64,000 bases of DNA from Psammoneis japonica (Eukaryota). The DNA lies in the NCBI GenBank assembly GCA_008632985.1, contig QPGO01000090.1, forward strand, positions 124,001-188,000, written 5' to 3'. A program made the position numbers and the translations under genes. Below the pieces are notes generated by a model that saw nothing but the letters and a program-made list of their open reading frames with translations, searched no databases and was not told the DNA's origin. Numbering within the stretch: position 1 is the first letter of the stretch; each line of letters begins with the position of its first letter. Below, in pieces: positions 2,571-61,089 of the stretch.

Positions 2571-2960
2571 CATGAAAACAAAGACGAAAGAAGTAAAAAA
2601 TGAATAAGGGATGTTGCAGCTTTCTTTATTCAGCATCCTGAATAAACTCAATGATCATTTTTGCGATTTCCAAATTTTATATACTAAAAATTATTACTGT
2701 ATTGCACAAATACATTAACAGGGAACATTTTTCTAAGTTAGTCACTGTATAATTTTTTAATGTTTACCGCTCTCAACCCATGCTTTTGGTCGCCGTTCGC
2801 CGTGTCGCCTCATCGAAAATGGGAATGCGAATGGTTTTTTACCGGTAAGCTACCAAACCAGGTACAAAACACCACTGCAACACTTTTCACTAGTTGAGAT
2901 AAATCACAGAGCGAGAGATTTGACACAGGGTATATAATTCATGAAAGGTCTAAAGAAACC

Positions 2961-15716: not shown

Positions 15717-16086
15717 CTCGCAACATACCATGCCGTTCTGAACACGGCAAAAAGCGAAACACAAAACGGCATGTTTCGCAAAATCAAGCGGTCACAAATC
15801 CATCGCCAACAGACAATAGGAATTGTAATATTGTATATATCGTTGAGGGTAAATCATTTAATTGTACATATTAAACATTTTATAATGATTTTGAAGAACT
15901 ATTGACTTATTGTACCCTTCACGATCGACCAATGTCTTATTTACACAGCTTTTGTGATATAAAACAATTATAGATAATTATAGTTAAAAATTATAAACTG
16001 TATACAACATTTAAGGTTTCGAGCTATTTTAAATTAGACCGCAGCACGTAGATCCATCCTTAAAAAGCAATCCGAAATCGAGAATA

Positions 16087-16430
16087 ATGAAATCCATCGT
16101 CACGAAGCAGCGCCCACACACAAACCTCTCAAGCGCATCTGCCTCACAGCAGATTCGAGGCTTTGTCGTTGTGCAGCAGGTGTGGCTGATTTTCTTTCTG
16201 GGTTTTCTTGTCTCTGCTTGTTGGGGCTCATTTTGGCTTCAGCAACAAAGCCGCGCAGTTGTCACACTCTCACAGCATCTTGTTCTCTTGCGTGTCTCAT
16301 GGCTCTGCTCTCCACCGGCATGCACAGAGCTCTGGAGTCATGAGCTCATGGTGGTGATGTGGAGGGCAAGGTGATCTTGAGTGCTTGCTTTGTTTTGCCC
16401 TGTCTCCATCCATGTCTTGGTCCTTGCCTG
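16087..16430 (+). repeat. Diverged direct repeat, copy A (partner at 19602-19982)
   Basis: Shares long blocks with copy B, e.g. CACAAACCTCTCAAGCGC, TTTCTTTCTGGGTTTTCTTGTCTCTGCTTGTTGGG and GAGTCATGAGCTCATGG. Confidence 0.9.
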
Positions 16431-19400
16431 CTGCCATGCAAAAGATGTCCGGAATTCCGGAGTTTTTTGGCTTTTTGTGTGGAATCATGTAGAAAGTGTG
16501 CCACCAGAGACCTCAAACGTTCCTGGCATCCGTGACTGAAATTTCACCGCGGTGAAGTGCGAGAGTTGAATGATTTGATTGGACTCAACTGGACATTGAA
16601 AACGGCACGTTGCAACTTGATGCATCTTGCCATGACACACATTGTCAGAGGCCCGCATCCATGACTTGTCTTGTGGTCTGACCAGCAGTCATTGTTGTAG
16701 ACAGCGTTTGTGAGAGCCCGCACACATTGTGTTTGTTTGTGATGAATCATGGCCATTCAACATGAATCACACCAGTTCGCCACAAATCGGTGTGGTTGAA
16801 ATGAACAAATGAACGTCCACACCAACCAACAAATGTCGCGGACTTTTGCAAACAGCCATCAATCCCAATGAGTGAGGTGCTGACCAATCAGTTGACGACT
16901 CCAAACTGGTTGCTTTGTGGGATCTCACTTTTCTCATTGCCGCTGACCAGGTGATGACTGAATGCAGTGTTGTGATTTATTTTCAATTTGTGCTGTGGAA
17001 GTCAATCGGTTGACCGGTGTGTTCAAACATTGTTTTCCATGGTCCCATCCGTTTGTTGCATGTCTCTGCTGCAATTGACTGTCAACAAGTGTGGTTGCAA
17101 TTCATGGCCACTGAATCACTCTTGACCAAACTGCCCCAACTCCAGTTTGTGTGTTTCTGCACAGTTGACCTGGTGGTTGTCTTCATCATCTGAACCATCC
17201 TGTGCTTCTTCTGCCACCCATTGATCTTGCTCAGTTGCAACGGCTCTGCAGAGCTCTCCCCCACCATCCGAGGCATCCGCTTGCAACATCTTGTTTGACA
17301 TCTCCATGACCATGTCAACAAAGAACTTGCTGGCCTTTGGTGACCACCCTTTGCTCTTCCTTGGTGTCTTGCGCTTCCTCGGTCCTGTGTTTCTGTCTGC
17401 GTCTTTTGGTTTCACCACCGTGAAATGCTTGAGTGTCCTGACAAGCTTTCTCTTCTTGCTGGATGCACCCGCATTGTTTTGGATGTCAACAAGCAATTTT
17501 GCAGCCTTGGTCAGAGCCGTGACTTGTTGTGCAGGCTTTGGCTCATCTTTGATCTTCTTGACCATGGCGTCCCATTTTGTGATGGACTCTTCTCTTGTGT
17601 CCTTGAACTTCTGCTTCAGTTCTTGCACTGACAAACCTTCCTCCCCCAACATCTCTTGTGGATCTTTCTGGAGCAGCACAACATGCTCCAGTCCTGGTTG
17701 TCCTTTTCCTTGGCTGTTGTGAGGTCTGGCATGATGGTCTTGCACAAGTCCTTGCCTCCCTCTTGGTCCATTGGGCCTCCATCATCAACCAACTCCATGT
17801 CGTAATCCATCATCAAAGTCCTGTCCTCGTTTCAGCTCTTGCACTTGGCATGGCATTTTGCCAATTTCAAAAATGTGGTTGTTTCCTTGGTGCTTTGCAG
17901 TGCACTCTCAACGGAACATCACACGTCACAGCACAAGGCATGTGATGAGCTCAAGAGCACACAGGTTCAAGTGGGCAGCTGATGGTGAAAATTCTTGCTG
18001 GAGGTTTGCATTGATGACACTGTTTCTGTTGCATCACGACCGACCTCATGCATTGCCATTTGTGCTGTGTTTTTCTATGAGGCTTCATGCATTTGTGTTG
18101 TTTTGACTTGCACATGTGTTGTCTTTTCCTGTTGTTGTTTTGTTCCGCAGGGTCTCAGTCATTGTGAGCCATCCCTGAGAAAGAAATGCATGCCCAGAAT
18201 GTCATTTCCACCTTGTGATGGCCACGGCAGTCTGACAACAAGGCCAAGTCACAGACACAGCACAAGGATGACTTCACAACAAATGCGGCAGCTTGGATCT
18301 ATGGTGTTTGAAGATGTTCAAGCTCTTGTCAGCTCAGATTTGTTGTTGAGCAATTTTGACGCGCATTTGATGTGACTCCAGAAGCTGATGCGGACTTTTG
18401 TTTGACAGAGAAACAAGCCATGGTGATTGTGATGGTTTGCATTGAATCTGCAGCTGCAAGGCAGTTTGTGATGCAGAAACATGTGACTCATTTGCCTCAT
18501 TTGCCAAGCCTGTGCAACACATTTAGAGGTGAAAAACGGGACAAAATGTGCACAGTGCCAAGTCTCCAAAAACAGCACAAGAGTGCAAGCTCAAAAGAAG
18601 AATTGGCTTCACAACTTGTCATGGGAGTGCAGAGCTCATTTTTCTGGGGCATCATGTCTCTGTTGTTTTTATTGAGTGAACATTCACTGGTGTTGTTGCT
18701 GCCAATGTGTGAGTTCACCTTGACAACATGTTGCACTGCATTCTGAGATTTTGGAATGAAAAAACAACTTGCACTCTTTGCATCATTCTGTCATGACAGA
18801 AACACATGAGCCATCCCTGGCCCTTTTGGAGAAATTGGGCAAGCAAAGGAGAAGCTGCAGACAGATGCGGACAGCGCCATTTTGATGGATTGTCATCAGG
18901 TGGTGTGTGTCGTGAGGAGGCGTCATGATGGAGTGCCACTTTGTGTTTTTGCACTGTGTCTGTGTGGGAATGTGCGTGCTTGGCTCTCATGCAGTTTCTG
19001 TGTAAAAAGTGCACCAGGCAATCTCTGGACTGCCCTCTTAAAAATTGTGAACTGTGCACAACATTCTGGGTTTCGTTAAAAAGCAACAAGCCACGTGCAG
19101 GGGGGTTGTGAGTCCCGAAAAACAGGGTTTTGGCCGATTTCTGGTGCAAAACCCATGTAGAAAATTCACGTAGAATGTCTTGTTTGTTGTGCTTTTCCCA
19201 TGCTTTGTGAAAAACAGGCCACGACCTCAAGGAATCAATTTCAGTCACAATGGTTGACACTTTGCGCACTTGTTTTTTGATGAGAAACACGACGATGTCC
19301 ACCATTCTGGCAAAATTCCATCATTGGAAAATGTCCACCTTGGTGGGACTGCAGTGAAGTGTTGATCAAATTTCTGAAAATGGAATTTTTAAGTGTTCAT

Positions 19401-20050
19401 GCACTGAATTGTGTCATTTGTGTAAAAGTCATCATGTAAAGTGTCAATGGTTTCAGGGGAAAATGATTCCTGAGGCGTCGGCGGAGCAAAGAAGCGCGGC
19501 CCAAACCCTGTTTTTGTCATTTTTTCTACGTAAAAATTCTGTGTGATTTTTGCACCAGTGCACATGGCTTATCTGCAAATCTAGAACACATGCACACAGC
19601 AATGAAGTCCATCTGTCACGAAGCAGCCCACAGCACAAACCTCTCAAGCGCGTCTGCCTCACAGATTCGAGGCTTTGTCGTTGTGTTCACATGTGGGGCT
19701 TTGCAGGGGCAGTGGGGATGGCTGATTTTCTTTCTGGGTTTTCTTGTCTCTGCTTGTTGGGATTCATTTTGGCTTTGGCAACAAAGCCGTGCAGTTGTCG
19801 CACTCATGGCATCTTGTTCTCTCTTGCGTGTCATGGCTCCACTCTGTGGCACCGGCATGCACAGAGCTCGAGAGTCATGAGCTCATGGCAGTGATGTGGA
19901 GGGCGAGGTGATCTTGAGTGCTTGCGTTGTTTGTTGTTTTGCCCTGTCTCCAGCCATCCATGTCTATCTTGGTCCTTGCTTGGTCGTTGTTGTTTTTGGA
20001 GTTGAAGCACCGATGTGATGGCAACAACTGCGGCAAGAACCATCGCGCGC
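16090..20050. mobile_element. TpA-depleted island 2, containing a decayed minus-strand coding remnant (17116-17816), probably a DNA-transposon accessory gene
   Basis: About 20 TA in 4 kb by eye. The 209-aa ORF has no Tyr, a K-rich segment, a KGWSPKASKFF motif and an acidic tail. The island is bounded by direct repeats. Confidence 0.55.
19602..19982 (+). repeat. Diverged direct repeat, copy B (partner at 16087-16430)
   Basis: Aligns with copy A along its length, with short indels and TG/CA/CG swaps. Confidence 0.9.
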
Positions 20051-45519: not shown

Positions 45520-48190
45520 GACAACAACAACAACAACAACAATAACAGCGTGCAGCGGGCCCAACAATTGCTCACTGTTGTCAATGTCTGCTGATTGCTG
45601 ATGAAGCCTGTCTTGCTGCTTGCTGTGCTCGCAATGGCCAGCAGCACAAGAATCGCGCGCAGCATTTTGGGAACAGTTGGCAAAAAATAACCGCGCACTT
45701 CCCAACTGTTCGCTGCTCTGCACTGTGTCCTTTGTCTTTCAGAAAGGACACTGCTGATTCATGCTCGAGCCCATCCATTCCAACATGGATTCTCTCAAAT
45801 GCGCCAAGTGCCACCCATCAAACCTGGCTAAAAAGGACAAATAAAGGCTCAGACAATGATGGCCAGCAAAGAAACATGTTGCTCGTGGGAGTGGCTGCGT
45901 TTGAAGCCTCAAAACCCTCACACCATCCGTGCGGCCCAATCGTTTCGGCACAATCGCACCACATGTGAAGCCGACCAATGGGGAAGAACCTGTTTGCAAT
46001 GCCGCACACTTGACAAATGCATTCTTCTTCCACTGCACCAGTTTGTCGACCCAAGACCTTGGAAGAAAAGTGTCGAAAAATCAAGCCATTGAAAAGCACA
46101 AAGTCGGGTGTTTGCCAACCTGAAAATCAATGCAATCTGGACAAGCAAAGACGTTGGAATCTGACCAGCAGAACAAGAAAAAATCACACAGAGGAAACTC
46201 TCCTTGTTTGCTTTGTCCTCCACACCAACCAGAGGAGAGGGTGCAAGTCAAAACCCAGGTCAATCCCCACGGTGGCGAAGCGACGACTTGTTGTTTGTGC
46301 ACGACTCTTGCTGAATTGATGGAGACCACACGTGTGGTGTGAAAGATGTGCGTGCTGCAATGTCATAGAAACTTGAAGAAGATCTTTGCTCTCTTCCCCT
46401 GAAAACATGAAATTCAAGGTCGTCTCTCATTGGCCATGTCCCCTCAAGGTGGGACTTTCGAAAAGGAACGATGACACAGATGAAATGAAATTCCTTGTTT
46501 TCAAAAGCAAATTTCCCATTCTGGTGCAGTTCTCAATCATGTTAAAACAACAACAATGCGCAGTCAACCACCACACCATGTTGTCCTCTCCTCTTCCCAG
46601 AGGGGCAAAAATCAGTTGCAGCTTCATCAATGCCATGGCACCTCTGTCTCAAAAGCAGCCCACAGCGACTCCCAGTGCACTCACCCATCTAAAAGGGGGG
46701 ACCTCATTACAAAAAAAGGTGTCATGGCCCTCCCAAAAGCAGCCACCACCAGAGAGCCAGCCGGCCGGCAACTCAAGTGTTGAGCAGGAAGCTGGGAGGA
46801 GAGGACAGCAGGATGGCAAAAAAGCCCTTTTTGTTTCCTCACAATCTAGGAACAATGCGGCCCTGCACTTTTTGAAACTTGACCCTCAGATTCAACAACT
46901 TCTGCAGAGTGCCAAAACACAAAAATGCACAAGCGCAGAAAAAACAGAAGTGTTTTGCAAGAAAATGTGGAGCAAATGTGTGCAACATGGCTTTTCCTTT
47001 TTGCCCTTTGTTGACTCTCTGCACTGCTGAAGAAGTTGGCAAAAACACCCCAGAGGGATTTCTTGCAGTTGCGTGCTCAAGCACTGTGGAGCTGCCAGTT
47101 GTTTGTGGCATGCCCATTTTTGTTGACAAGCTCCCAAGATTCATGAGCAATGAGCAGCACAAGGGTCACCACACTCCAATGTTGTTGGGCTGTGCCTTCC
47201 TGTTCTTGAACATTTTGTCAAAACTTGAGGTGGAAATGAGGTTGAACTTTTGACCCACCTGCCAGGTGATGGGAGCACAAATTTCACAGTTGCTTCAGGT
47301 GGCACCAGCTGCAATGTCAGCACACTTCTTGGGCAATGCCAGCCCCCACATTGTCACCAGCTGTCATGCAACAGAAAAAGTTGGAGCAGGAGCAGCCTTC
47401 TTTGTTGTTGACAATCATGTGGTGATCAATGAGCAGCCATGTTGGTGACAGTGCTGTCATGGCAAAAAGACACCACTGCAAAAGCATGTGGGAGGTTGGT
47501 GATGGAAGGTGCTGGCTGCAGGAGGCACTGGCTGCAGAGTGAGGCCAATGAACTTTGTGCATGTTTTTGGCCAACTGCTGCACCAGTGCAGTGCTGCCAG
47601 AGCTCAAAAGAGCATCAACATTTTGTTCACTCTCACTGCAGCCCCATGATGCACTGGACTGGACTGCCAGCATTGCTGATCTCATCAAACTTTTTGTGCA
47701 CTTGGCTTCAAGACATGCTGCATCAGCAAACACCGGCAGTGTGCAACTGGGGTAGGCTCAAAGCAAGAAGCAGAAGAACAGGTTTGTCAAAGGCTTTCCT
47801 GTTTCCGTTGCAGCCCTTGGTGGGTGTTTGTTTTGATGGTGTGGGTCTTTTTGTTGCCTGGGGAGCTGCAAGACTGTCCTTTCTTGTGAAACTGCAGCTT
47901 TCTGGGAAATGCTGACAAATGGAAAATTTGACCTGCTGCCAAATGCTTGCACACAATGCACTGGTGGCACCAACCCTGACAGTTTCTCCTCGCTTCTGCA
48001 GTTTTGTCTGAGGCTGCCAGTTTCTGCCTCTTTTGCACTCAGATGCAATGGTGTGTGTTCAATCCTTCACACATGACAGCCAATGAGTGCGGCGGGATTG
48101 GATGGCCCTTCGTTCTCCCAGTGAGCGTGTGACATTTGACACGAGACATGCCTGATGTGAGTGTGATGGCGGCAGAGAAAAGAGGCAGGC
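45520..48190. other. TpA-depleted, CpG-poor island 3; decayed, family not recognised
   Basis: About 10 TA in 2.7 kb by eye. Dense, almost Tyr-free ORFs in all frames. Abrupt return of TA at ~48197 (CTAAAGACTTAATCTAAGCTTAG). Confidence 0.75.
45521..45546 (+). repeat. (CAA)n microsatellite
   Basis: ACAACAACAACAACAACAACAATAAC at the left edge of island 3. Confidence 0.85.
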
Positions 48191-48291
48191 GCACAGCTAA
48201 AGACTTAATCTAAGCTTAGCAAGGATATAGTTCAGACGTGGATAAAACAATTTACGCATTTTAAATTACCAACTCACATGAAAATGCCTTC

Positions 48292-49790
48292 CTACTTGGA
48301 TGCACCCGCAGAGTGTCCAAAGTCTTTCAGGAAGTCATCAACTTTTTCGCCGGTTCTTGCTTCAAGATCGAGCTTCTTCTTAAGCTCAATGAGGTCATTT
48401 AGAACCTTTCTGAGCTCTCTCTGCTCTTCGCTAAGGAGGTTATCAAAATGAGAGTTGAGGATAATTCCAGTTTCGGCTTCCCTTTGCACCAGACCTTCTG
48501 CAACGCAGTCGAGGAAGCAGTCGTGATACCAACTAGGATTGTCACCCCAGCTTGCTCCAAATGAATGGATGTCAAAGTCCTGGTCCCAGAGCCGGCGGAA
48601 CATTGGGTTCTCTACCATGGTGAGGATTGTGCCCAAACTGTCCTTTGGCTTTCCGGTCTCGTCGTACAGGACCTTGCGACAGTCATCGATGACCTTGTGA
48701 ACGTTGTCATCGGTCATGGAGAAACCACAGAAGAGCATCTCGGTTGTGAGAAACATCCCCTGAAGACGACCACGTAGAGCTTGGTATCGATCGGAATAGC
48801 GCATGTAATCCTTGCGAGAGAGAACAATGCTGTCTGGGTGATCAGTGCATCCGTGCAACTTCAAGACGCTGTGAGTTGATGCCGTGCCCGACTTGGCAAT
48901 TTCTCTAGAGTCCCACGGCAACTGAGGTATTTTGTCGCCACCGCTAATGGCGGCAGCTTCGTAAAGAGTGTCATAATTTGTGGTCACTGTAGGAGCTCCA
49001 AAAGACTTGAGTAAAGCATGAGCTGGAGTGTAGCGTCCGGAGGTCTTGATGATATCCGCCACAGCATGCTTCCAACTAGGGCCAATGACCTCAGCCAAGA
49101 TAGTTGGCTGATCGAGAAAACCAAGCTGTTTGATCTGCTCCTTCTCATCCTCATTTAGGCCCGCATTTTCTGCCAGCTTATCAAGAAGCTGACCCCAAGA
49201 TGGTGCTCCTGACGGAATCGAAATCCCAGCACCAATAAAGACAGATAGACGCCCCCTTGCAGCGGAACTCTCCAGCCGCGCGGCATCCTGTTTCTGTTTG
49301 TCAGAAAGCATCCAGAATGCTCCTCCCTCCATTGGGCAACACGTCCGACGCATGAGCTGAGAAAGGATATATGCATCCTTATCGGCGAAGCAAAGAGCAA
49401 CATCGACTCCGTAATCGTTTGCGGCAGCATAAACTTTTGGGAAAACTGCTTCCAATAGTTTGCTCTCCGGTTCAGAATCACTATCCTCGTATAGATTGCC
49501 GATGCCAGGGAGAGACAAGGCAAGGAGCGGCTTGCCCCGACGAAAAGCAGAACATTCACCCTCGAAACGTTTCCCTGCTCTCTCAAGGAACGAGTAACAA
49601 ATTGACTTGCACATGTCGAAATGCTCCTTGCAATCAAGATCGTCAGCGTTAACCTCGTAGATAACAGGCTTGCTTGTCCCTTCCTTCAAACAAACCTCTC
49701 CAGATGCAGCGCCTGGATTGTGACAAGGATTGCATCGGCCGCAATCCCTTCTGCGGCGCAATGAAGGACAAATACGTGTCCGCATTTAGA
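48292..49790 (-). CDS. Bacterial-type SIR2-like (SIR2_2) protein with a macrodomain-like N-terminus; 5' end frameshifted and uncertain
   Basis: LSVFIGAGISIPSGAPSW, VTTNYDTLYE, VLKLHG, IVLSRKDY and LFCGFSMTDDN. GHVFVLHCAAEGIAADAILV lies in a shifted frame at ~49725-49785; PLLALSLPGIG is also present. Confidence 0.85.
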
Positions 49791-50411
49791 CTGACTTTGA
49801 TCGACATGTGATGGTTTGGGAAAAGGCGGGCAACCGGAAACGAAAGAGCAAAAGATCTGTGAGGTCGGATAAGAGAAAAGATTGCATCTACGGCGTTTCT
49901 ATATTCATGGTCCCTAGCATTGGGCGTTGGGCTGCCATTGAATGGCAACGTTTTCCCCTAGATTTCCAGCACTTACTCCGGAACGATCATTACTGCTATC
50001 GTAGACCGCAGTGGCTGGGACACGAGACGACTAGAGATGACTAAGTCTGAGTAACGGTCCCTCAAACGACCTGAGCAAGGAGCTTCCGAGGCCGTTTTGC
50101 GTACCAATACCCAATACCTTACCCCAACTTTGTGTTGAAAAGTGTGATGATTGAATCATCATCTTGATGCGATCTGATGCGATTTTAGACAGAAAACGTA
50201 TCCGCGGTATGGTAAGTGCGGTCATAACGGCGGTATGGAAATCTGATTGGACAAACGACGTCAGCTAAGAACCGTGTGATAATCGATAAGTAACGATGAC
50301 ATCATCCTTACCTCACCATACGTGTACATTTTCATCGGTGGATATATTATTATGAATGTTCCCAACTTACTCACAGCAAACTGCAGCGCTGCAGCGCACA
50401 ATGACACCGGT

Positions 50412-51359
50412 CGACGGTGTCCCACTTTACGGCGAGATATCTCAATGATACTTACACCGATTTCCCCGTTTCTTTTTTCAGTATTGGGATAAATTGTACA
50501 ATTCATCCTACTAGGTTGGTGCCATTGTACATTATTGAGAATTATGGATTTCCGTTTTGTTTGAAACCTCGCAGCAATTTCAAATTTTGGAAAAGCGCGC
50601 ACGACGGTGTCCCACTTTACGGCGTGATATCTCAACGATACTTACACCGATTTCCCTGTTTCTTTTTTCAGTATTGGGATACATCGTACAATGCATCCTA
50701 CTAGGTTGGTACCATTGCGCATTATTGAGAATTGTGGATTTCTGTTTTGTTTGAAACCTCGCAGCAATTTCAAATTCGGAAAAGCGCGCACGACGGTGTC
50801 CCACTTTACGGCGTGATATCTCAACGATACTTACACCGATTTCCCCGTTTCTTTTTTCAGTATTGGGATACATTGTACAATTCATCCTACTAGGTTGGTC
50901 CCATTGTGAATTATTGAGAATTATGGATTTCTGTTTTGTTTGAAACCTCGCAGCAATTTCAAATTTGGAAAAGCGCGCACGACGGTGTTCCACTTTACGG
51001 CGTGATATCTCAACGATACTTACACCGATTTCCCCGTTTCTTTTTTCAGTATTGGGATTCATTGTACAATTCATCCTACTAGGTTGGTCCCATTGTGAAT
51101 TATTGAGAATTATGGATTTCTGTTTTGTGTGCAACCTCGCAGCAATTTCAAATTTGGAAAAGCGCGCACGACGGTGTTCCACTTTACGGCGTGATATCTC
51201 AACGATACTTACACCGATTTCCCCGTTTCTTTTTTCAGTATTGGGATTCATTGTACAATTCATCCTACTAGGTTGGTCCCATTGTGAATTATGAGAATTA
51301 TGGATTTCTGTTTTGTGTGCAACCTCGCAGCAATTTCAAATTTGGAAAAGCGCGCACGA
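50412..51359. repeat. Tandem array of five ~189-bp units inside the MULE
   Basis: Units start CGACGGTGT at 50412, 50602, 50791, 50980 and 51169; near-identical. Confidence 0.97.
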
Positions 51360-51451: not shown

Positions 51452-54035
51452 TTAATGATTAATGCTGTCATGACTTATGATGAGACGTGTCCACACCTTT
51501 CCAGTGTTGGAGCTGGCATATTTAGATATCCAGTTTCTCACCGACACGCTTTTTGCGATTCGACGCTCGAATTGAATGTTGCCAATTGCAAGCGGTACCC
51601 CCGGCACCTCCATAGCAAGATACTTCCACACCAATGTTGTCTTCATTTCCCATTGTTGTAGCCAATGGTCGTATGTTGTACAAGGCATGAAAAACCACCC
51701 ACTTTGTACCCAACGGTAGTGTCTCCAACACTGGCTTTTCGGTGGAGACGAGCGTTGCCAATTTCACCTGGTCTGTAATAGCTCTTGAAAATGCATTGAA
51801 TCTGTCATGAACTTGTTGATATCTTGTTGCCTAACCCTGTGTCCAATCTTTCTTAATTCCCTGCAGGTGACAATCGTTCGGCAATTCTTGTCTCCACAAA
51901 AGCTGCAGGTAGATTTGGACTTTTCGTTTTTCTTTGCAGCTACGGTGCCACCATTTCGAGCCATCACTTGTGAAGCGATTCTCTTCTTGCGAGGTGCCCC
52001 AGCTCTGTTGGCCTCTGGACCACGTTTTGTTGGGGGGTTGCTCAAAGATGAAGCTGGTCTTTTCCTGGCAGCTTGCGCAACAACACCAACAACATCAGCG
52101 GCGTCATCTGGGCTACCCCCCTTTTTGGCAATGTCCAGCAGCTCGAGTATGGAGCCGTACAATGCCCCTCCAGTGCTGTGCTAGAACTCACTGCATATTC
52201 TGTCAGCTTTGTGCAAGCCTTTAGCATCTGGTTTCTATTAACTTTTTTTGGCTTTCGGGAGTTTGTTTCTTTTGATGCCGTTTCTGACAGCGCCGACACC
52301 GTCGACACTGTTTCATTCGGCGCGGCTTCGGCAGACTCAAATTCCATTGATGCCATTTCCGATTCTGATGCTTCGGTTGCTGTTGATTCGGTTTGTGGAG
52401 CGAGTTGAGACAATGCAACATCGTCGTCGCTGGAATCACTGGCTCGGCCGTCTCCATCGTCACGGCAACTGTCATCCACGTCAGCTATCGGTTCCATCTT
52501 GTGAGGCTGATACAACCGTTCTGGGAACAATGCCTTGTCAAACACACGGCCGTTTCTGCAGCACTCATGGGGACACATGCTGAGCGCCTCCAATCGGCGA
52601 GTACAGTCACATCTCCCATGCTTGGGACGAGTCTTACGCTGTCGACGCTTGTGCCTTCTCTATGCACACGGTCAAAGTTGTCGCCTTTATCTTCCAACAA
52701 CTTATAGTTGAAACTTTCATTGTACACTTCTGTCCAGTAAGTCTCGTGTGCCCACTTGGACAGAGTTCGCAACGCCTCCGCCTCTGACGCATTTTCTGAT
52801 TGTACTTCTTCGGCTTTCCTTGCAGATATAAGCCGGCACTTTGCATCCTCTGTTTTGTTTTGTTGGTCACGGGTAGTCTGCCGTTCGAGTAGCCCACTGA
52901 TTTGCTCCACCATGTCTTCAGTAGACCCACTCCCGAGATGAGCCTGTTTGAGTCATCCACACAATGGCGCAGGGTTCTCCGTTTGCGTCTTTCTTGACAC
53001 GATAGTCTAAGCCTCGACTGCTCTGCTTTATTTTCATAAGATACAACTCAGCCTTCCATGCCTCACCACGATCTTGCATCACTTGCCGCAACAACTCCCT
53101 CACCTTGGTGCGACATAAATCAGTGTCGGGTAATTGGATAGCCTCATTTTCTGCAAGAGGCTTGAACCTCATGAGGTTCTCAGCAGCTTTAGCATCCATG
53201 GGCTTGTCTTCTAGATAGTGTTTCTTTGCCCGCATCCTCACGTTTCGAACGTCATCAGCTGTAATTACCTGCCCATCTGGAACGTATTTTCGAAGGAGCC
53301 CACGAATGCCACGGGGGTTTGTGACGACTCCAGTCGCGATAGTTTCTGCAATGCGATCCATGTCTGCGAGATTGATGTTTCCCAACACAGCGCCAGCCGC
53401 TTTCTTTGCCAGGCGGGGCGCCTCCACACCCGGGTTACAATTGTGCTCAAAGCAGTGGCCAGTGATACGCACCATTCTTCGGTGCCTTTCATCTTTGGGA
53501 TTTCGTTGGTCTACAGTGGCCTTTATGACAAACGGGCAGTTTCCCTTGATGCTCTGCCGGTTTCTCTGCCTTGAAGGCGACACCACCGACTCTTGTGCTT
53601 TCTTGTTTGCTTTCTTAAAAAAGCACTTCAAATGATAGTTGTTCACTGTCGTAAGGTGAAATCCCCAAGCATCACCAAATCGAATCGCCGCTTGTTTGAG
53701 CTGACAGAAATTCACGAAAGATCTCTTCTTCAGGATGCTTCCAAACAGCTCTTGAGCTGCCGACTCCAACTTCTCCAGTTTTACCATGCCCTCCTTGTCA
53801 ACATCCGTATCCAGATTTGGTCCATGTTGGTCCACCACGTCTTTCAGGGACTTGGGCAACCAATCGATGCTGTCGGCCACTTTAATTTTGCGTTGCTCAG
53901 AGCTCTCTTAGTCGGCTTGTCATCTGGCCCAGTGTCAGTCACCGCGACGTTGTCGACTCGCTCGAATGGATCTCCGTCCCCTTCATTCCATTCAGGCTGT
54001 TCCGGTGGGTGGTTTTCAAAGAACTTGTAAGACAT
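51452..54035 (-). pseudogene. MULE transposase remnant: FAR1-like zinc finger, SWIM finger and C-terminal CxxC knuckle; DDE core deleted
   Basis: WGFHL...LKCFF...NCPFVIKA...FEHNC; DYRVKKDANGEPCAIVWMT joined directly to AHLGSGSTEDMVEQI at ~52948; GRCDCTRRLEALSMCPH; CSFCGDKNC. Several frameshifts. Confidence 0.8.
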
Positions 54036-55275
54036 GGTTTGCACACTGCGGTTGTCAATGTTGGCGCCAAGGGCCGATGGTGTTGGTGGTTTTTCAGGCG
54101 GTGTTGATTTAGAGGCGGTGTGGATGTAGCCAGAGTTGACAACGGTGTGGTTGTCGCAACGATGCTGGTGGTTGGTGCGGCACACCAAATTCGAAGTATT
54201 TGATCGAGTGCTGCCGAGTAAGTGCAACTACCTACGTGGAGAAGTGTGTTTGTTATCGGTGTGTTGCGGCACCGGTAGCACATCTGATTGCTGGTAGACA
54301 CCGGTAATAAAGTGCGCGCGATGTTGCGTTTTTGGCAGGTGCTGGGGGGCAATGATGATGTCAACATCACTCATTGTGAACAAATAAGTTCTTAGCTGAC
54401 GTCGTTTGTCCAATCAGATTTCCATACCGCCGTTATGACCGCACTTACCATACCGCGGATACGTTTTCTGGATTTTAGATCTTATTTGATGATTGTGCGG
54501 ACGACAACATACGATTTATGCACCCCCGAAGGACACTCTTTTTTTACTGGGAGTTGCAGGAAAAAACAATTGTTGCACTGCTGCTTGATGGCACGGATGA
54601 TGTGACACGCGGCAGCTTTTTTTGTAGCATTGTTTGTCTGCCGCATTGCCCCGCAAACAACATCATCATCTTGTCTGCCAGTTGTCATGCTGGGTGTGTC
54701 TGTCGTGGAAACGAACAGAGGGCTGTTTTGTGCTTTTGATTTTTGTTGCTGAGAATCTTGAAATTTGCCATGCGAGAGGAAAAAGTGAGTGCTTTTGGTT
54801 GAAGAGAAATGGAGTCAACCAACCACAAGCTTCAACGGGTGTGAGACAAGAGTGTGGTTTTGAAGCTCGGCATCGGCATCTCTGTCGCACCGGCATGACA
54901 TCCCCATCATCTGCGCGCGGAATCATCAGAAATGAAAAATGCATGCGCTGATGCACTGCCGGCGTCTGTCTGCACCCCGCAAGGCTCACCACGAAAAAGC
55001 GCGTGAAGCACACGTCACAATTGCGCCATCGGTGGGTGCATTTTCATCCCCGGGCGCGCTGCCGCCACCCGCCCGTGCATCACGGAGATGCAGTCCGGCG
55101 CATGCTGTGGGCCCTGTGACAGTGCTGTAGGGCCCTGCTGTGGGTCTGCCTGTGGTGGGGAGGAGGGGTTCGCTTTTGCTCGCGATCGAACTCGCGAGGC
55201 GTTGCATCGACAATGAGATTAAGGAGCGTTCACGGCAACATCATCTTGGCAACAACATGCTTTCTGCTGTTGATT

Positions 55276-56193
55276 TTAGTTGTCAAAACAATCCACATCA
55301 AATGGTGAGTGACCCACCATGAGGGCCAACTGTGTGATGTTGGCCACGGCATGAAACACACGGCAATGTGTTTCCTTCGCGTGGCGGTGTCTTTTGTCAA
55401 GCATTCCGAAACGCTTGAACCATCCATTGACAGCCTCATGCCTTGCCCTTGCTGTTGTTTTCATGGCCTCGTCTGCATTTCTCAGGCCGGATGGAGTCGA
55501 GCTGTGCTGGCTCCCGTCGCTGCAGCCACTGTCGGCTGGATGCATCTCGCCGTCTTCAAGCTCTTCAATGATCCATTCACGAGCAATGTTCAGATCCAGC
55601 AACCCAGCTGGGTGCGGCCCATTGACCCAAACAATCCACCCTGTCTGAATGCATGCTCCAATTTCATGCCGCAGACCAGCACCGTGGAACTCATGGGAGA
55701 ACCACATTGGATCGAATGGTGATGGCTCGTAGACTCTGAAATCAGTGCCGTCGAGTGTCACCAAACATCTGCTGCCGTTGTCATCAATGAAGCGGTCTTC
55801 CCAGTGAATCTAAGAACAAGGTGTCAGTCCATTTGTTTCATGCACACAAGTCCTGTCTGGAATGGTGCACGCCAAATTTAACTGTCCAATGAGTTGAGTT
55901 CCGACCCAAACCCATTTTCTCAGCGTGTCTTCATGGATTTTATTACAGATGCCAGCAACGACTGTCTCAGATTCATGCAATTTGAGAAAGCAAAGGGTGT
56001 GGAGCATGTGAATGGGCAAAAAACCTCGTGGCATTTTCCCGTCATCAAGGAGAAGCCCCCACAACTCAGACGCTGCTTCTTCTGGGGTGCAGAAGCATGA
56101 TGCGAACCGACGTTTCCATGCTGCAGTTGACCCTTTTGGCTTCTGAATGATCGTCTGTGCTGAGTGCTCTGCGGCCTCTTTGGGCAGTCTCAT
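55276..56193 (-). pseudogene. PIF/Harbinger DDE (DDE_Tnp_4) transposase, ~284 aa, hypermutated (Tyr->His/Cys)
   Basis: Exons 56193-55873 and 55809-55276; 63-bp intron with a GC donor. IHWEDR...CLVTLDGTDF, WFSHEF, ADSG and ARARHEAVN carry the D-D-E triad. Only one Tyr. Confidence 0.88.
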
Positions 56194-58517
56194 GATGAGC
56201 AGTTGGCAACATGCCACAGTGTGTTGCTTTGGTCTTTTCTCTGTTGCGCTGTTTGTGCCAGTCTCCACTGCCAGCAGCCAGTCTCTGGTCTCCAGCTGGC
56301 CACTCTAGAGCAGCAGTTGTTTTGTGTTTGACAATTGTGTTTTGTTGTCTTCACGCAGTTGGGGTTCTCATCAGAAGAGGCCTTTGGCGAGATTCCGTCG
56401 TGTTTGAAGAAAATGCGAAAAAAATGCGATTCGGGTGTGGTTTCCGAATGGTGACTTCGGGACATTCGCAATGGGCAACTTTGGGCGTCGTTTTGTCAAC
56501 CGGAACACGGTAGAATGACCATTCCAAAGCATGCTCTTGGCTCAACTAACACAGCAGTTTACATGCAACATGTGACACAGAATTTTACAACCATGATCCA
56601 TCATTGGCGGGGCATTAAAAAAGCATTCTTGTTCTACAAATCGAAATGAAATCGCCTTTTCACAGACGAAAAGCGCACGGAAACATGCCAATGAAAAGCC
56701 AAAACAAACATCAGGAGCTAGCCCACCATCAGTGCTGTCGCAAATGCACGCCGAAGCTTGGGATTCAGCCACTCATTCTTCAGTTGAGTGGGTCCAAAGT
56801 CATCGTTCTGGAGCTGAAAATCGTTTTGGGTGTGATTTGGGAACGATTTTTGCATGGTCTCGGAACGTTTTTCGTGTGGTCTTGAGGGAATCTTCGTTGT
56901 CAAGAGGCCCTTTCTCAATGTTGGCGGTTGGTGTTTTCTCAAATCTCATTTTGGCGGGGGGTTGCAGGAAAAAACGAAATTTTCATTTTTCCTTGTTTTT
57001 GCTAAGTTTTTCCCCTCATTTTCGAACTCCGCGGTCTTTCGAAGCTTCAGCTTCTCTCGATTTCGCAGAAGTTCGAATTTTTTATTTTTTATTTGAGAAA
57101 ATGCGATAAATGTCATTGTGAATGGAAAATGGACGTTTTTCACTAAAATCCATCATCGAGGTGCATTCGCGCACGGTGCTTTCGCACGATTCTTCGCGCA
57201 GCAACGGGTGGCTTCGACCGAGTTCGCTTCGGAAGGCTGATGAGTTGATGAGAACTCCGATTTGAATCATTGACGACCCTCTCACCCCTCTGCTTCTTGC
57301 GGGATAGTCTGTTTCAAATTCAAGTGCCGCCAAATAACTCCAACTGCCAAAACCAACAAAGGCCTCTTGGGGGGGACCATTTCGATGTAGTGGATTTCGA
57401 GATTCCCTTGCAGATCGCACTAAAAACGTTCCAAGATCATTCCAAAAGCGTTCCGAGAACGTTCTCAAATGCACTGGTTCGCGCTGAGAGCCAACTTTGG
57501 AGCCTGAGAATCAGCCAATGGGAAAGATGATGCACCATCATGACCGCATTGTTGTTCAAACTGTCCGAGCATGACACAGCAATGTAAAATTTAAACGGGT
57601 TTGATTGGCACATTGCTGAGAGGCACACCTGTCAAAACCGGTTTTTGTTTTCTCCCAAAAAAAGTGCGGTTCTTAGAAGCCTCAATGCTTTTCAATTGCA
57701 GCAGCTGCAGTCAATCCACTGTAATGTGTTGCAACTGCTGGGCTGGCTTTGCACCAAATGTGCTCTGTGACAATCACCAACAGCTCCAACATTGAAAAAC
57801 CATTCGACGAAATGGGCATTTCATCATTCCCGCATTTTGACCGTTCTCGGAACGTTCCAAAAGCGTTCCCGAATCGCACCCAAGCCGCGCCCGAAGGGAA
57901 TCTTTGAAAAGGCCTGTCCACGAAAAACAATTTTTGACTGCACTCTGAACAGATGAGAACCCCAACAGGTCCGCAGAAACTGAGTCCACCTGCGGCAACA
58001 AAAACTTCTGCCTGCCGCCCGCGGTCGCTGTGGCATGCAGCCAGCATCACTTGGCAAGAACACAAAACATCAAGCACACGATGACCACAGAAGCGCGCAC
58101 TCACCATGTCAATGCACCCATCCAAAGCCACAGTGCATTGAGCCCAGACAGTCATCCAGTGGCCAACACAGCAGGGTCGGAACGGATTTCGGAACAGCAG
58201 TGCTGTCGGTTCATTCGCACTCGCATCGTGCTCATCTCCGCAAGACGAAGAACAAAAAGGCGCACCGCGTGACCGCGTGGTGTTCGAAAAAGCGGGAAAA
58301 AGCAAGGAAAAATGAAAATTTCGATTTTTCTTGCATCTCCCGGTGGAATTTATTCAAATTTGAAAAGAGCATCCCGCGGACAGTGGTGAGGTGAGTTGGT
58401 CGTGACCCATTCAAAAATGGGGTTCTCATTGCTGCCCGTCAATGCGAGCGCTGATCTTGACGACTCTCGACTGTGCACCATCAATCCTCTCATAAAAAAG
58501 AGAAAACCAAAGAAACC

Positions 58518-59714
58518 ATGCCCAAACTCAACCAACGAACCAAATCGGTTCTTGACGCTGAGGCTGCCGGCCCCCTTCGAGCAGTGTGGCGCAAGGGGTC
58601 CGCCAACTGCAAACTCTTGAAGGAGATGCTGATGGATGGGAGGGCAAGCGCTGGAGCGATGCCAAAAGAGATCCAGCAGATGCGCGCAGAGTTCATGCAC
58701 CATCCACTGGACAAGTTCCGCACTGGCTTGTGCAGGCTCAAAGACGAAACCGGGTTCAATCTTCGTCGAACGATGAACGACAGCAATGAGAACCCTGGCG
58801 GTGAGTTTTGATTTTCACCGCACTCGCACATGCACTCGAAATAAATGTGAGTGACGTCACTGTGTTGCTGACGCGTGCATTTTCATTTGACCGCGTCGTG
58901 CGGTGTTCTTTTTTTTCATCTGGCCACAGACACCGACGACGGCGACGAAGAGCTGTTCTCGGGTGGCCTTGACAGCACTCGTCGGACGGCATCGGCTCCA
59001 GCTCCTGCAAACAACAACGATGCAGCTGCTGTTGTGAATGGAGCTGGTGTTGCTTCTGTGATGGAGGCACGTGGTGGTGGGCAAGGAGGTTCTTGGAAAA
59101 GCTTCAAGCCCATGGTTTTGCAAGCCACTTGCAAGGACTCTGTCACCAAGACCAATCATGTCGTGTTGGTTGTTGTGGCTCCATCTGGTGTTTGCACCAC
59201 GGACCTTTCTGGTGTCCAGCTGTCTGTTGTGAGCAATGGGTGGATGCTCAGTTGCGTTTCCCAGTGGCCACAGCACTCCATGGACATGGACGCTCTCCAC
59301 GCAGTTCTCCTTGATGAAGCCACTGCCCAAGGGGGAAACCACGGTGGCGATGATGAACTCCGTGACGTCTACAAGCGCCTTGAAGCTCTTTCAGATGAGC
59401 TGTCTTCAATGAGGCAGTCTGACTCTGAGGTCCTGTCTTCCACATCCCTCGTGCCCTTGCCAATCCAGGTCTCTAGGAAAATCAACAAGGTTCATTTGTT
59501 GGGTGGTCGCGATGGGTCCAGGATCATTTGTGTGGACCTCAAGTCGGAAGATTCGACATGCTGCGCTGTGGAGAATCCAAAAGTCAAGTTGATTGATGCC
59601 ACAGGCGACGGTGTTGGACTCATTGGCTGCAATTGGGAGCTGGACGCCAGCGGACAGGATGCACGTGCATTTGACACAATGCACAGATTGGGATTTAGGA
59701 TCATCAGCAACTGA
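58518..59714 (+). pseudogene. Second (accessory, putative DNA-binding) gene of the Harbinger element, hypermutated
   Basis: Exon 58518-58800, GTGAG...CAG intron 58801-58929, in-frame exon 2. W..GSA..KLLKE...MPKEI...R.EF..HPLDKFR helical domain. One Tyr in ~350 aa. Confidence 0.65.
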
Positions 59715-60035
59715 TTGGTACAACAAAATATTCTTTCAATAACAGTCTTAGCACAGCTGCTACTGTAGCAGCAGCAGGGCCTGCTCTAGCTAGCAGAGTA
59801 GACTGTAGTTTGACTCGGTGATGAACTCGGCAGTGCGAGTGCAGCAGTGCTCACGCCTTTGGCTTTTCGCTGTTGCACGTACGACGTACGTGCGGCATGC
59901 TGGCAGTCGTCGTAATCGTCTGCTCTCTTTCTCTGGTAGGTGCAGCACAGTACGGCCGCCCGGTACATACAGTGGGTTCGTTTCTGTAGGGCCCTGCTCT
60001 CTCCACTCTAGCTACTACTAGTAGTGGGACTAGTA

Positions 60036-60814
60036 CAAGTAAAAAACCGGTCTGTCCTCTTCCGACCGGTCTGTCCTCTTGCAAGAGCAAACTTTGTAAA
60101 GCAACTCTAAGAGTGACTTCCCATTGTTTGCCATACAAACCCAATCTATAAGCATTAGTTAGAACGTCAATAGAGATCTTGGAGAAAACAGCGGGATAAA
60201 AGAATATTGTATCATAGCGTAATCGCGGGCTAAAAACGGCACATCGCCATTTTGTAAAAAAATCCACAGTCTGAGAATTTACAGAGATTTTCGTTCATTA
60301 AATATCTACATATTTTAATATTTTTTAATATCGTATCGCGTTTTGTTGATTTCTCCACCAACGACATGAAGTTGCACCGTGTCATGATGGCCAGTGACAA
60401 AAACCTGCATGCCGGTACGCAGTGCCAGTGACAAAGTAAAACAACAATCAATGAGAGCTTATGGGCCCATATTACTCGAAACGAGTGTGTACTATGGACT
60501 TGCCATGCTGCCGTTGCAAGAGATGATGGCCACGAGCGAGCAAAAAAAAAACTCTGTAAATTTCTCGGTACATTTCCACGTAGAATTCTACTGACGACCG
60601 GTCTGTCCTCTTGGAGTGAAAAAAGGCCCCTCTTGCGACACTAGTTATGGCGTTCAGAACCGTGATTCTGGTGAAGTTAGCCATGGGAACATGTCAATCG
60701 ACAATGTTAGAAGACGTAAGAAGCATTGTAAAGTGAAAAACCCATCGATTTTGGAAACAAAATCGACTTTTACAAAGATACCAAAAAGTAGAGGACAGAC
60801 CGGTTTTTTACTTG
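60036..60814. mobile_element. MITE, 779 bp, Tc1/mariner-type
   Basis: TA|CAAGTAAAAAACCGGTCTGTCCTCT at 60034-60060 and its exact reverse complement at 60790-60816. Internal copies of CGACCGGTCTGTCCTCTT at ~60063 and ~60595. Confidence 0.88.
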
Positions 60815-61089
60815 TAGCCAGCTATCTGCGGCGCGGGCTGGTGGCGCCTTTTTAGGGAAAAAACGCGTGGAACCATGCGTAGACGTTTTTTCCTGCAACT
60901 CCCTGCTTTCCGTACGTACAGTACAATAGGAACAGAAAAGAACACCGAAGCAAGGATATTGCATCGGCATGTGAAACATGTTGAATGTTACACATTATTG
61001 TGTTATTGTTGTCACATTTTACTCTTTCATTCTGAATTCACACGAAGCAAGCGTCTTTGAGAAGAAGCAACCATACTGCAAAGTCAACC

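Follow-up and report, generated by a model that had tools for sequence, protein, structure and literature searches.

Why do four stretches of a diatom genome contain almost no TpA? The window analysed here, that is, the whole 64,000-nucleotide stretch at positions 124,001 to 188,000 (forward strand) of Psammoneis japonica contig QPGO01000090.1 (assembly GCA_008632985.1), holds four such islands, one of which lies in a PIF/Harbinger-type transposable element with a recognisable transposase gene. A preliminary description of this DNA, made from its letters alone, had proposed a mutator that acts on repeats and turns TpA into CpA or TpG, in the direction opposite to the repeat-induced point mutation (RIP) of fungi. 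The comparisons presented here demonstrate a DNA-level, element-confined process that converts TpA to CpA or TpG, prefers 5'-TAY-3' (Y, pyrimidine) and recurs in other genomes. TpA hypermutation is already in print for another lineage, as the main text of a preprint on Bigelowiella natans describes it (bioRxiv 10.64898/2026.01.13.699255).

TpA-poor islands

The islands (I1 to I4, Table 1) were located by a 1-kb scan of the window together with a list of its long TA-free gaps. Our recount gives 3.2-6.9 TA per kb inside them versus 38 per kb elsewhere, close to the first estimate of 4-7 per kb against 30-40 per kb in flanking sequence. At background density 95, 148, 101 and 193 TAs would be expected in I1 to I4, and the Poisson probability of such low counts ranges per island from 1e-30 to 2e-44. 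The observed/expected (o/e) ratios of CA and TG are 1.45-1.88 in the islands versus 1.17-1.18 in the rest of the window, the two dinucleotides are balanced there, and base composition is the same as elsewhere; in 1-kb windows wholly inside I1-I3, TA o/e is 0.02-0.07 and that of CA and TG 1.38-2.12. The edges are sharp. To the left of I2, TAs are spaced roughly 10 bases apart as far as 16085; the long terminal repeat (LTR) begins at 16086 and the next TA is found at 16490, while I4 has about 7 TA per kb inside versus 29-39 per kb in its flanks; in both, the island ends within a few bases of the LTR or the terminal inverted repeat (TIR). The tract originally delimited, 54550-59720, is indeed TA-poor (37 TA in 5171 bases, o/e 0.116; CG o/e 0.81; no RTAY, with R for purine), but the depletion stops at about 59710, inside a larger TIR-bounded element (54549, 60903). 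We are highly confident that this signature is real.

Two further features follow the loss of TA. The statement that CG is still common applies to I4 (o/e 0.82) and not to I1-I3 (0.32-0.40): about 80% of TA but only about 18% of CG is gone from I4, whereas I1-I3 are depleted in both. The TpA process is much faster than CpG decay. In addition, TGA makes up 689 of the stop-type triplets on both strands of the islands, next to 59 TAA and 42 TAG, and this removal of TAA and TAG leaves many long spurious open frames (60 of at least 60 amino acids over 7.3 kb). CA and TG are not clustered by strand, with runs-test z values of -2.25 to 0.7 in the islands and -3.1 to 2.1 in the background; processive one-strand tracts cannot be demonstrated at saturation.

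Sequence context of the lost sites

RTAY is absent from the 78 surviving TAs that start in the four islands, while it accounts for 31.6% of the 1899 background TAs; its density is 0.0 per kb in every island versus 12.0 per kb outside, and the other TA classes survive at about 0.2-0.35 of their background density. The four largest RTAY-free gaps measure 5209, 4064, 2983 and 2563 bases, the longest of the window spanning 54510-59719, against a next largest of 495 and a median of 59. In two polarised metagenome comparisons (see below), the mutated fraction was 19/24 for RTAY, 10/22 for RTAR, 15/27 for YTAY and 7/19 for YTAR (Fisher P 0.008), and in the lightly mutated metagenome copy L038 RTAR had become CA only (3/3) and YTAY TG only (3/3). 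A single rule accounts for these rates and outcomes: on either strand, A changes to G in 5'-TAY-3'. Sorted per strand by the base 3' of the edited A, editing affected 24 of 61 sites with C, 11 of 36 with T, 9 of 43 with A and 6 of 44 with G. RTAY is palindromic and presents the target on both strands, so it would be lost first and completely. TACG was mutated at 12 of 15 sites in the polarised pairs, a preference that we take as a lead only. The RCGY motif, in which a new CG would arise by double mutation, is not raised in I4.

Untargeted change, be it general neutral TA loss in old unconstrained DNA or element families that were TA-poor from the start, would draw on the already low background TA o/e of 0.56. 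We consider it very improbable, given that the other non-coding sequence of the window (intergenic DNA, a tandem array, repeats resembling miniature inverted-repeat transposable elements (MITEs) and young nested inserts) has TA o/e of 0.67-1.14, that the RTAY-free gaps of 2.6-5.2 kb far exceed all others, and that, as described below, conserved Tyr codons are lost and sibling copies retain TA.

Tyrosines lost from a Harbinger transposase

Island I4 contains a PIF/Harbinger DDE transposase pseudogene. Its match to Pfam DDE_Tnp_4 (E 2e-4, 21.4 bits) lies under the curated cut-off of 24.8, and a sequence search returned 98 homologues (best E 7e-67), many with PF13359; those carrying an organism name come from Seminavis and Amphora. 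The catalytic D, D and E (in DGTD, AD and RARHE) are retained at invariant alignment columns. Of the earlier assertion that both frame and triad are kept, the triad thus stands, while the frame is broken by one in-frame TAG.

The transposase was aligned with 21 homologues, and columns with Tyr in at least 30% of them were taken as Tyr-rich. At these seven columns, two of which are Tyr in 21/21 homologues, the window reads H, F, H, H, C, H and C, i.e. His or Cys at six of seven, whereas 2 of the 138 filled homologue cells hold one of these residues. The scarcity of Tyr first noted is borne out as well (1 of 342 residues, 0.3%, versus 2.0-4.8% in the 21 homologues). The codons CAT and TGC are one TA>CA or TA>TG step away from TAT and TAC. 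All peptides listed in the preliminary description (LKLH, GLRHEIG, NGPHPAG, EMHPAD, DSGC, KRHRH and DVDCF) are present and lie opposite Y or Y/F, so that the objection that intact homologues might also carry His or Cys at these positions found no support. EMHPAD (ATG CAT CCA) faces EM/KY-L/I-AD in homologues, and SHE (CAT GAG) faces SHK, a K>E change that arises where T and A meet across two codons (T|A). A codon parsimony count that takes in every conserved column is less telling: 31 of 135 differ and only 5 of these are TA>CA/TG, 4 being Tyr, as the signal is swamped by ordinary divergence at 45-55% identity. The occurrence of Tyr>His and Tyr>Cys in one gene means that both strands were mutated.

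This bears on ADAR-like A-to-I editing of double-stranded element RNA, fixed by reverse transcription. ADARs prefer a 3' G and are not known outside animals, whereas the 3' neighbour here is a pyrimidine. Cut-and-paste TIR elements are mutated as strongly as the LTR-flanked I2, which by itself would suit such a route, and both strands are hit within one gene; RNA editing of the ADAR type therefore does not fit, and the mutated TIR DNA transposons require no RNA intermediate. We give this explanation hardly any credence despite a 5' U preference similar to that of ADAR, which is noted in the main text of the Bigelowiella preprint (bioRxiv 10.64898/2026.01.13.699255).

Sibling copies in sequencing runs

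Two public runs of one sample, X1 and X2, contain shares of 0.61 and 0.22 of the window's sampled words. Comparison of the region 53000-61000 with 816 X1 contigs gave 283 difference places, 40 of them listed. X1 contigs differ from the window at 230 transition and 44 transversion places, and the transitions are symmetric (A>G 55, G>A 65, C>T 57, T>C 53), with TG>CA swaps between window and run contigs at 55115-6 and 55310-1. In a nested element inside I4, a sibling retains TA at 9 of the 13 listed events (57877-58233), the window reading CA, TG or CG there; four of these nine retained TAs are GTAC, and a CG facing TA, a double change, is a single case (57888-9). The segment 54549-54835 is matched exactly by one contig (287 bases, 0 differences, word depth 364). 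As anticipated, differences among copies are enriched at TpA, both in the run contigs and in the near-identical metagenome pairs described below. Wholesale restoration of TA by the run contigs, which would have pointed to faulty base calls, was not seen.

An assembly or base-calling artefact on modified DNA, with TA as the true sequence, is accordingly hard to credit. It could appeal to the word share of 0.61, to several places where the runs lack the letter of the window, and to the sequencing platform of assembly and runs not being on record. Against it stand the exact contig, the symmetric differences and TG<>CA swaps, with accurate-read contigs that carry other TA-less versions, and the same signature in metagenome contigs of other projects; a half-and-half strand miscall should moreover leave about a quarter of TA and create CG, while RTAY is at zero and RCGY not raised.

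The two LTRs of I2 provide a further comparison, as the LTRs of an element are normally identical upon insertion. Here 35 mismatches are spread over 341 aligned positions, with nine adjacent doubles among them, five of which are CA<>TG. Such swaps would be expected if one ancestral dinucleotide had been resolved independently to CA or TG, but they are ambiguous alone because the ancestor could be TA or CG.

Recent changes in metagenome relatives

When the transposase alignment was used to scan metagenome contigs, 266 relatives came up, and 80 loci were retained. At whole-locus scale TA o/e has a minimum of 0.34 and a median of 0.66, which hides shorter tracts: on a sliding scale of 600 bp, seven of the 80 loci have a stretch that lacks RTAY, with TA o/e <0.2 and a CA+TG o/e of 1.44 or more, and in two loci (L022, L057) conserved Tyr is replaced by Cys or His. 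Among near-identical pairs, TA<>CA/TG differences made up 31 of 55 mismatches in L012/L026 (plus two CA<>TG swaps), 22 of 34 in 4519 bases in L038/L041 and 24 of 39 in L038/L042, while three control pairs showed 7 of 51 (L029/L062), 3 of 36 (L043/L049) and 3 of 17 (L014/L071). In the trio L012/L025/L026, the 36 changes private to L012 comprise 14 A>G preceded by T and 5 T>C followed by A. Near-identical pairs show CG<>CA/TG differences as well.

The L038 changes are concentrated. Of the 35 listed differences from L041 (34 mismatches and one deletion), 33 lie within the first 830 bases, with 20 TA>CA/TG in a tract of about 800 bp (L038:24-828) just upstream of the DDE domain, and the remaining 3.7 kb contains two. 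L040 is identical to L041, and L038 departs from L040, L041 and L042 in this tract only, which suggests a burst limited to a short tract. L072 (tract 481-1582) and L077, which are 99% identical, differ at 32 places, 22 of which form 11 CA<>TG swaps next to three single TA<>CA/TG changes; all swaps fall in the TA-poor first 1.6 kb, and the following 1.8 kb is TA-normal and identical to the contig end. The swaps could stem from two saturations that ran independently, or from both-strand editing events whose two daughter duplexes are seen here. Open frames in the flanks of L041 and L077 match zf-UBP and DDE_Tnp_4 only (Pfam). With shared flanks, the mutations most likely arose in place. These copies indicate that the TpA process is recent and patchy in natural populations.

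The alternative is that extrachromosomal intermediates (cDNA or excised DNA) are edited before integration, as with APOBEC3, and that copies arrive mutated. Island edges that meet element ends within a few bases and the untouched younger nested inserts agree with it. We nevertheless judge it improbable: the 11 swaps of L072/L077 sit beside an identical, TA-normal flank, L038 is altered only in its 800-bp tract, and in the window mutation has affected a nested element as well as the element around it. The Bigelowiella mutations, moreover, arise in situ in an integrated single-copy region according to the preprint's main text (bioRxiv 10.64898/2026.01.13.699255).

Elements that carry the islands

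Island I4 belongs to a Harbinger-type element bounded by a 19-nt TIR pattern that has four matches in the window versus 0.05 expected, two bounding the outer element and two the nested one. In run X1 one contig begins exactly at 54549, and a joint 54546>60903 is also present. The nested element, about 1.4 kb long with 56-nt inverted arms (82% complementary), is missing from insert-free contigs of a public run, in which 56957 is linked directly to 58344 at depth 351. The segment 59711-60884 within the outer TIR pair has a high summed word depth and several joints in run contigs. PIF/Harbinger elements carry TIRs, a 3-bp TWA target duplication and a second, Myb-like open reading frame. At the ends of the outer element no matching pair of a 3-bp target duplication could be read. 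A plus-strand open frame of 280 amino acids (58872-59714) without a Pfam match lies at the right end of the TA-poor tract; it may be what is left of a second gene of the element, or a spurious product of the scarcity of stops. Near 60597 there is a third copy of the 22-nt terminal motif of the MITE-like insert.

Island I2 is an LTR-type element according to its flanking direct repeats (345-380 bp, 81% identity). Neither terminal repeats nor a Pfam match were found for I1 (10 open frames), nor terminal repeats or a credible Pfam match for I3 (15 open frames), and Pfam gave no credible match for 53 island open frames.

Table 1. Coordinates and composition of the TpA-poor islands, the elements that carry them and the compared repeats (positions in the 64,000-nt window)
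Feature	Position	Strand	TA	CG o/e	RTAY	Remarks
I1	1-2490		8 (3.2/kb), o/e 0.04	0.32	0	Cut by window start
I2	16085-19965		21 (5.4/kb), o/e 0.08	0.40		
I3	45540-48198		10 (3.8/kb), o/e 0.06	0.32	0	
I4	54625-59696		35 (6.9/kb), o/e 0.11	0.82		
Rest of window			38/kb, o/e 0.56	0.99		
LTR-flanked element (I2)	16086..19982	+				TA- and CG-poor; LTRs 16086-16430 and 19601-19982
TA-poor part of TIR-bounded Harbinger-type element (I4)	54549..59710	.	36/5162, o/e 0.113		0	CA/TG o/e 1.48/1.46
Left TIR of outer element	54549..54567	+				Perfect copy of 19-nt pattern
Right TIR of outer element	60885..60903	-				Perfect, 0 mismatches
PIF/Harbinger DDE transposase pseudogene	55279..56304	-	5/1026			In-frame TAG at 55810-55812; Tyr codons changed to His/Cys
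Nested non-autonomous element	56957..58341	.	13/1385		0	Same TIR family; TA-poor
TA-rich segment within outer TIR pair	59711..60884	.	76/1174, o/e 0.86		21	Not hypermutated
MITE-like insert	60040-60812		61/kb			TA-rich; in right part of outer element; 22-nt terminal inverted motif
Tandem array	50412-51359		57/kb, o/e 0.67			Five 189-bp units, 96% alike; TA normal
123-bp MITE-like repeat	50190-50312, 54348-54470		Normal or high			Inverted copies, 89% identity

The window also holds larger open frames beside the islands. Directly right of I1 lies a plus-strand frame of 1615 amino acids without a Pfam family (2898-7745), directly left of I2 a minus-strand, NLR-like frame of 1800 amino acids with NB-ARC, an APAF-1 helical domain and many TPR (10389-15791), and directly right of I3 a minus-strand frame of 497 amino acids with SIR2_2 (48292-49785); immune-type genes (NLR-like, SIR2_2) thus adjoin two islands out of four. 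Homology places the host among the diatoms and sets it apart from Bigelowiella natans: for an Exo1-like gene, the 14 homologues that carry an organism name are all from diatoms (best identity 46%, to unnamed proteins; best named Fragilaria crotonensis, 44%), two host genes have their nearest Atlas clusters in Bacillariophyta, and the best match of a GRAM/VASt gene is only 50% identical.

Mutated and spared sequences

Mutation does not simply follow repetition. The I4 family is multi-copy in the runs, and so is the spared 123-bp MITE-like repeat, with a summed word depth of 2403 over 54335-54601 in run X1; copy number alone would not trigger the TpA process. Younger inserts in the mutated element also keep a normal TA content. 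The proposal of a mutator acting on repeats therefore needs to be divided: confinement to mobile DNA is upheld, whereas targeting of repeats is not shown, with normal TA in the short high-copy repeats, the 189-bp array and the nested inserts. "Repeat-induced" in the sense of RIP is unsupported, because short high-copy repeats and a tandem array are spared here and the main target in Bigelowiella is single-copy. Instead, long mobile or foreign DNA might be marked, e.g. by chromatin or small RNA.

Proposed process

The core of the preliminary description, a mutator that turns TpA into CpA or TpG on either strand and is distinct from both RIP and 5-methylcytosine (5mCpG) decay, is sustained by the Tyr codons of homologues, by TpA-enriched differences among copies and by run contigs that do not restore TA wholesale. 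Going further, we think it rather probable that the islands are mobile DNA hypermutated by adenine deamination at TpA by a TadA/ADAT-type enzyme. A:T>G:C transitions arise at TpA in element DNA, TpA becoming TpG and, through the other strand, CpA, with a preference for A followed by a pyrimidine. The action is confined to the element, ending a few bases from its ends, affects both strands about equally and has come near saturation in the four islands of the window. Elements would be inactivated by missense changes (Tyr>His/Cys and others) and by erasure of TA-rich signals, with TAA and TAG stops removed rather than created. Decay of the 5mCpG type (CG>TG/CA) would run alongside but more slowly, so that young islands such as I4 would be TA-free yet CG-rich. 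In our view, adenine in DNA is most likely deaminated to hypoxanthine, by a deaminase of the TadA/ADAT type that would be recruited to silenced mobile DNA and act in bursts over tracts of about 1 kb, as part of the same kind of system as in Bigelowiella natans.

A thymine-directed route would produce the same pattern. Here the T in 5'-RTA-3' would be oxidised or modified, e.g. to 5-hydroxymethyluracil or 5-formyluracil by an enzyme of the TET/JBP type, and thymine in oxidised form can pair wrongly with G, so that T>C would result. The changes T>C in RTA and A>G in TAY amount to a single event viewed from one strand or the other, so this route fits the data equally well. The route still seems unlikely to us: we know of no enzyme that modifies thymine with a preference for R-T-A, and the TAY context suits the TadA loop U33-A34-C35. 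In the TadA/ADAT substrates known to us the target A34 is always preceded by U33, and the native loop of TadA is U-A-C-G. The sole published treatment, as set out in the preprint's main text, also favours adenine deamination (bioRxiv 10.64898/2026.01.13.699255).

Several observations weigh against adenine deamination of mobile DNA as we propose it. In the sequence, an attack on A (A>G in TAY) looks the same as one on T (T>C in RTA), and TACG is not singled out among the surviving TAs of the window. Two TG-versus-GA doubles in the I2 LTRs (alignment columns 147 and 302) fall outside the transition rule, as they imply T>G at a TpA in one copy. For I1 and I3, neither Pfam matches nor terminal repeats point to mobile elements. 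The runs do not represent the window's exact haplotype or strain, from which they depart in the unique flank at five places and by one inserted base; several island positions show another letter at the full depth of the runs, and exact island letters are confirmed for 54549-54835 only. Finally, whether the metagenome pairs represent the same locus or paralogues was judged from flank identity only.

More tentatively, and with considerable doubt, diatoms and chlorarachniophytes, perhaps much of the stramenopile-alveolate-Rhizaria supergroup, might share a TadA/ADAT-derived editing of adenine in double-stranded DNA that acts at 5'-TAY-3' on both strands, in bursts of about 1 kb, on silenced mobile or viral DNA. 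If this were true, the 11 CA<>TG swaps of L072/L077 would be the two daughter duplexes of single both-strand TpA edits.

Comparison with known systems

Fungal RIP likewise consists of transitions restricted to elements, skews dinucleotides and kills transposon genes. RIP, however, makes TpA from CpA, while here TpA is removed (Tyr codons to His/Cys), and this opposite direction means that the process is not RIP. Furthermore, RIP senses duplications, of which no evidence was found here, short high-copy repeats and a tandem array being untouched, and it inactivates by nonsense, whereas stops are removed here and inactivation proceeds by missense. Decay of 5mCpG also yields TpG and CpA, and is present in I1-I3, but cannot remove TpA. 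APOBEC3 and ADAR resemble the process in their clustered, context-specific, deaminase-type transitions against selfish nucleic acids; they act on cDNA or RNA and are strand-asymmetric, while cut-and-paste DNA is affected here, on both strands and with a 3' pyrimidine. With TadA/ADAT the likeness lies in a T or U before the target A and in the TACG preference of the polarised pairs, which resembles the native U-A-C-G; their native substrate is RNA and the substrate here DNA. Literature on diatom or transposable-element hypermutation, TpA depletion and DNA adenine deamination yielded, besides the Bigelowiella preprint, only fungal RIP, APOBEC and ADAR, and no report of the signature in diatoms was found in the literature searched, with subscription journals outside its scope.

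Should the footprint be as widespread as this second, distant and ecologically dominant lineage argues, it would represent a widespread eukaryotic defence; natural writing of A:T>G:C into chosen chromosomal stretches is otherwise known from one 2026 preprint on one alga. TAY/RTAY provides a sharper motif for the enzyme search, and a natural DNA adenine deaminase would be of interest to genome engineers. For annotation, hypermutated elements without TAA and TAG look like long open frames in all six phases, and they evade similarity-based repeat masking.

The closest system by far is that of Bigelowiella natans. According to the main text of the preprint (bioRxiv 10.64898/2026.01.13.699255), 231 of 302 nuclear mutations in mutation-accumulation lines fell in two integrated viral regions; these were nearly all A>G or T>C, all at TpA and in a subset of lines, with an excess of de novo mutations of about 1000-fold in some lines only. 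The same text describes 124 genome clusters depleted in TpA and enriched in CpA and TpG, an enrichment of DDE-endonuclease and reverse-transcriptase domains among TpA-poor genes, and a proposed ADAT2-like DNA adenine deaminase; a term search of it returned no occurrence of "diatom", "trinucleotide" or "context". As far as that text goes, the two systems are alike in A>G/T>C changes at TpA, in foreign or mobile DNA lying beside normal sequence, and in a long-term footprint of TpA depletion with CpA/TpG excess. They differ in host and target, i.e. a chlorarachniophyte with integrated giant-virus and virophage DNA there and a diatom with Harbinger-type, nested TIR and LTR-flanked elements here. 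The depletion is near saturation in the window (o/e 0.04-0.11) against a Rho of 0.45 in the Bigelowiella virus region, although our o/e may differ in formula from Rho; the 1-kb windows of I4 lie below the preprint's TA cut-off throughout, with CA/TG o/e of 1.20-1.65. An extended context (TAY, with RTAY fully lost) and the loss of CpG in three of the four islands are features seen here relative to what that text describes. The window thus shows a process of this kind by its long-term footprint, which here lies on the transposons of a diatom, has reached saturation and has a sharper motif.

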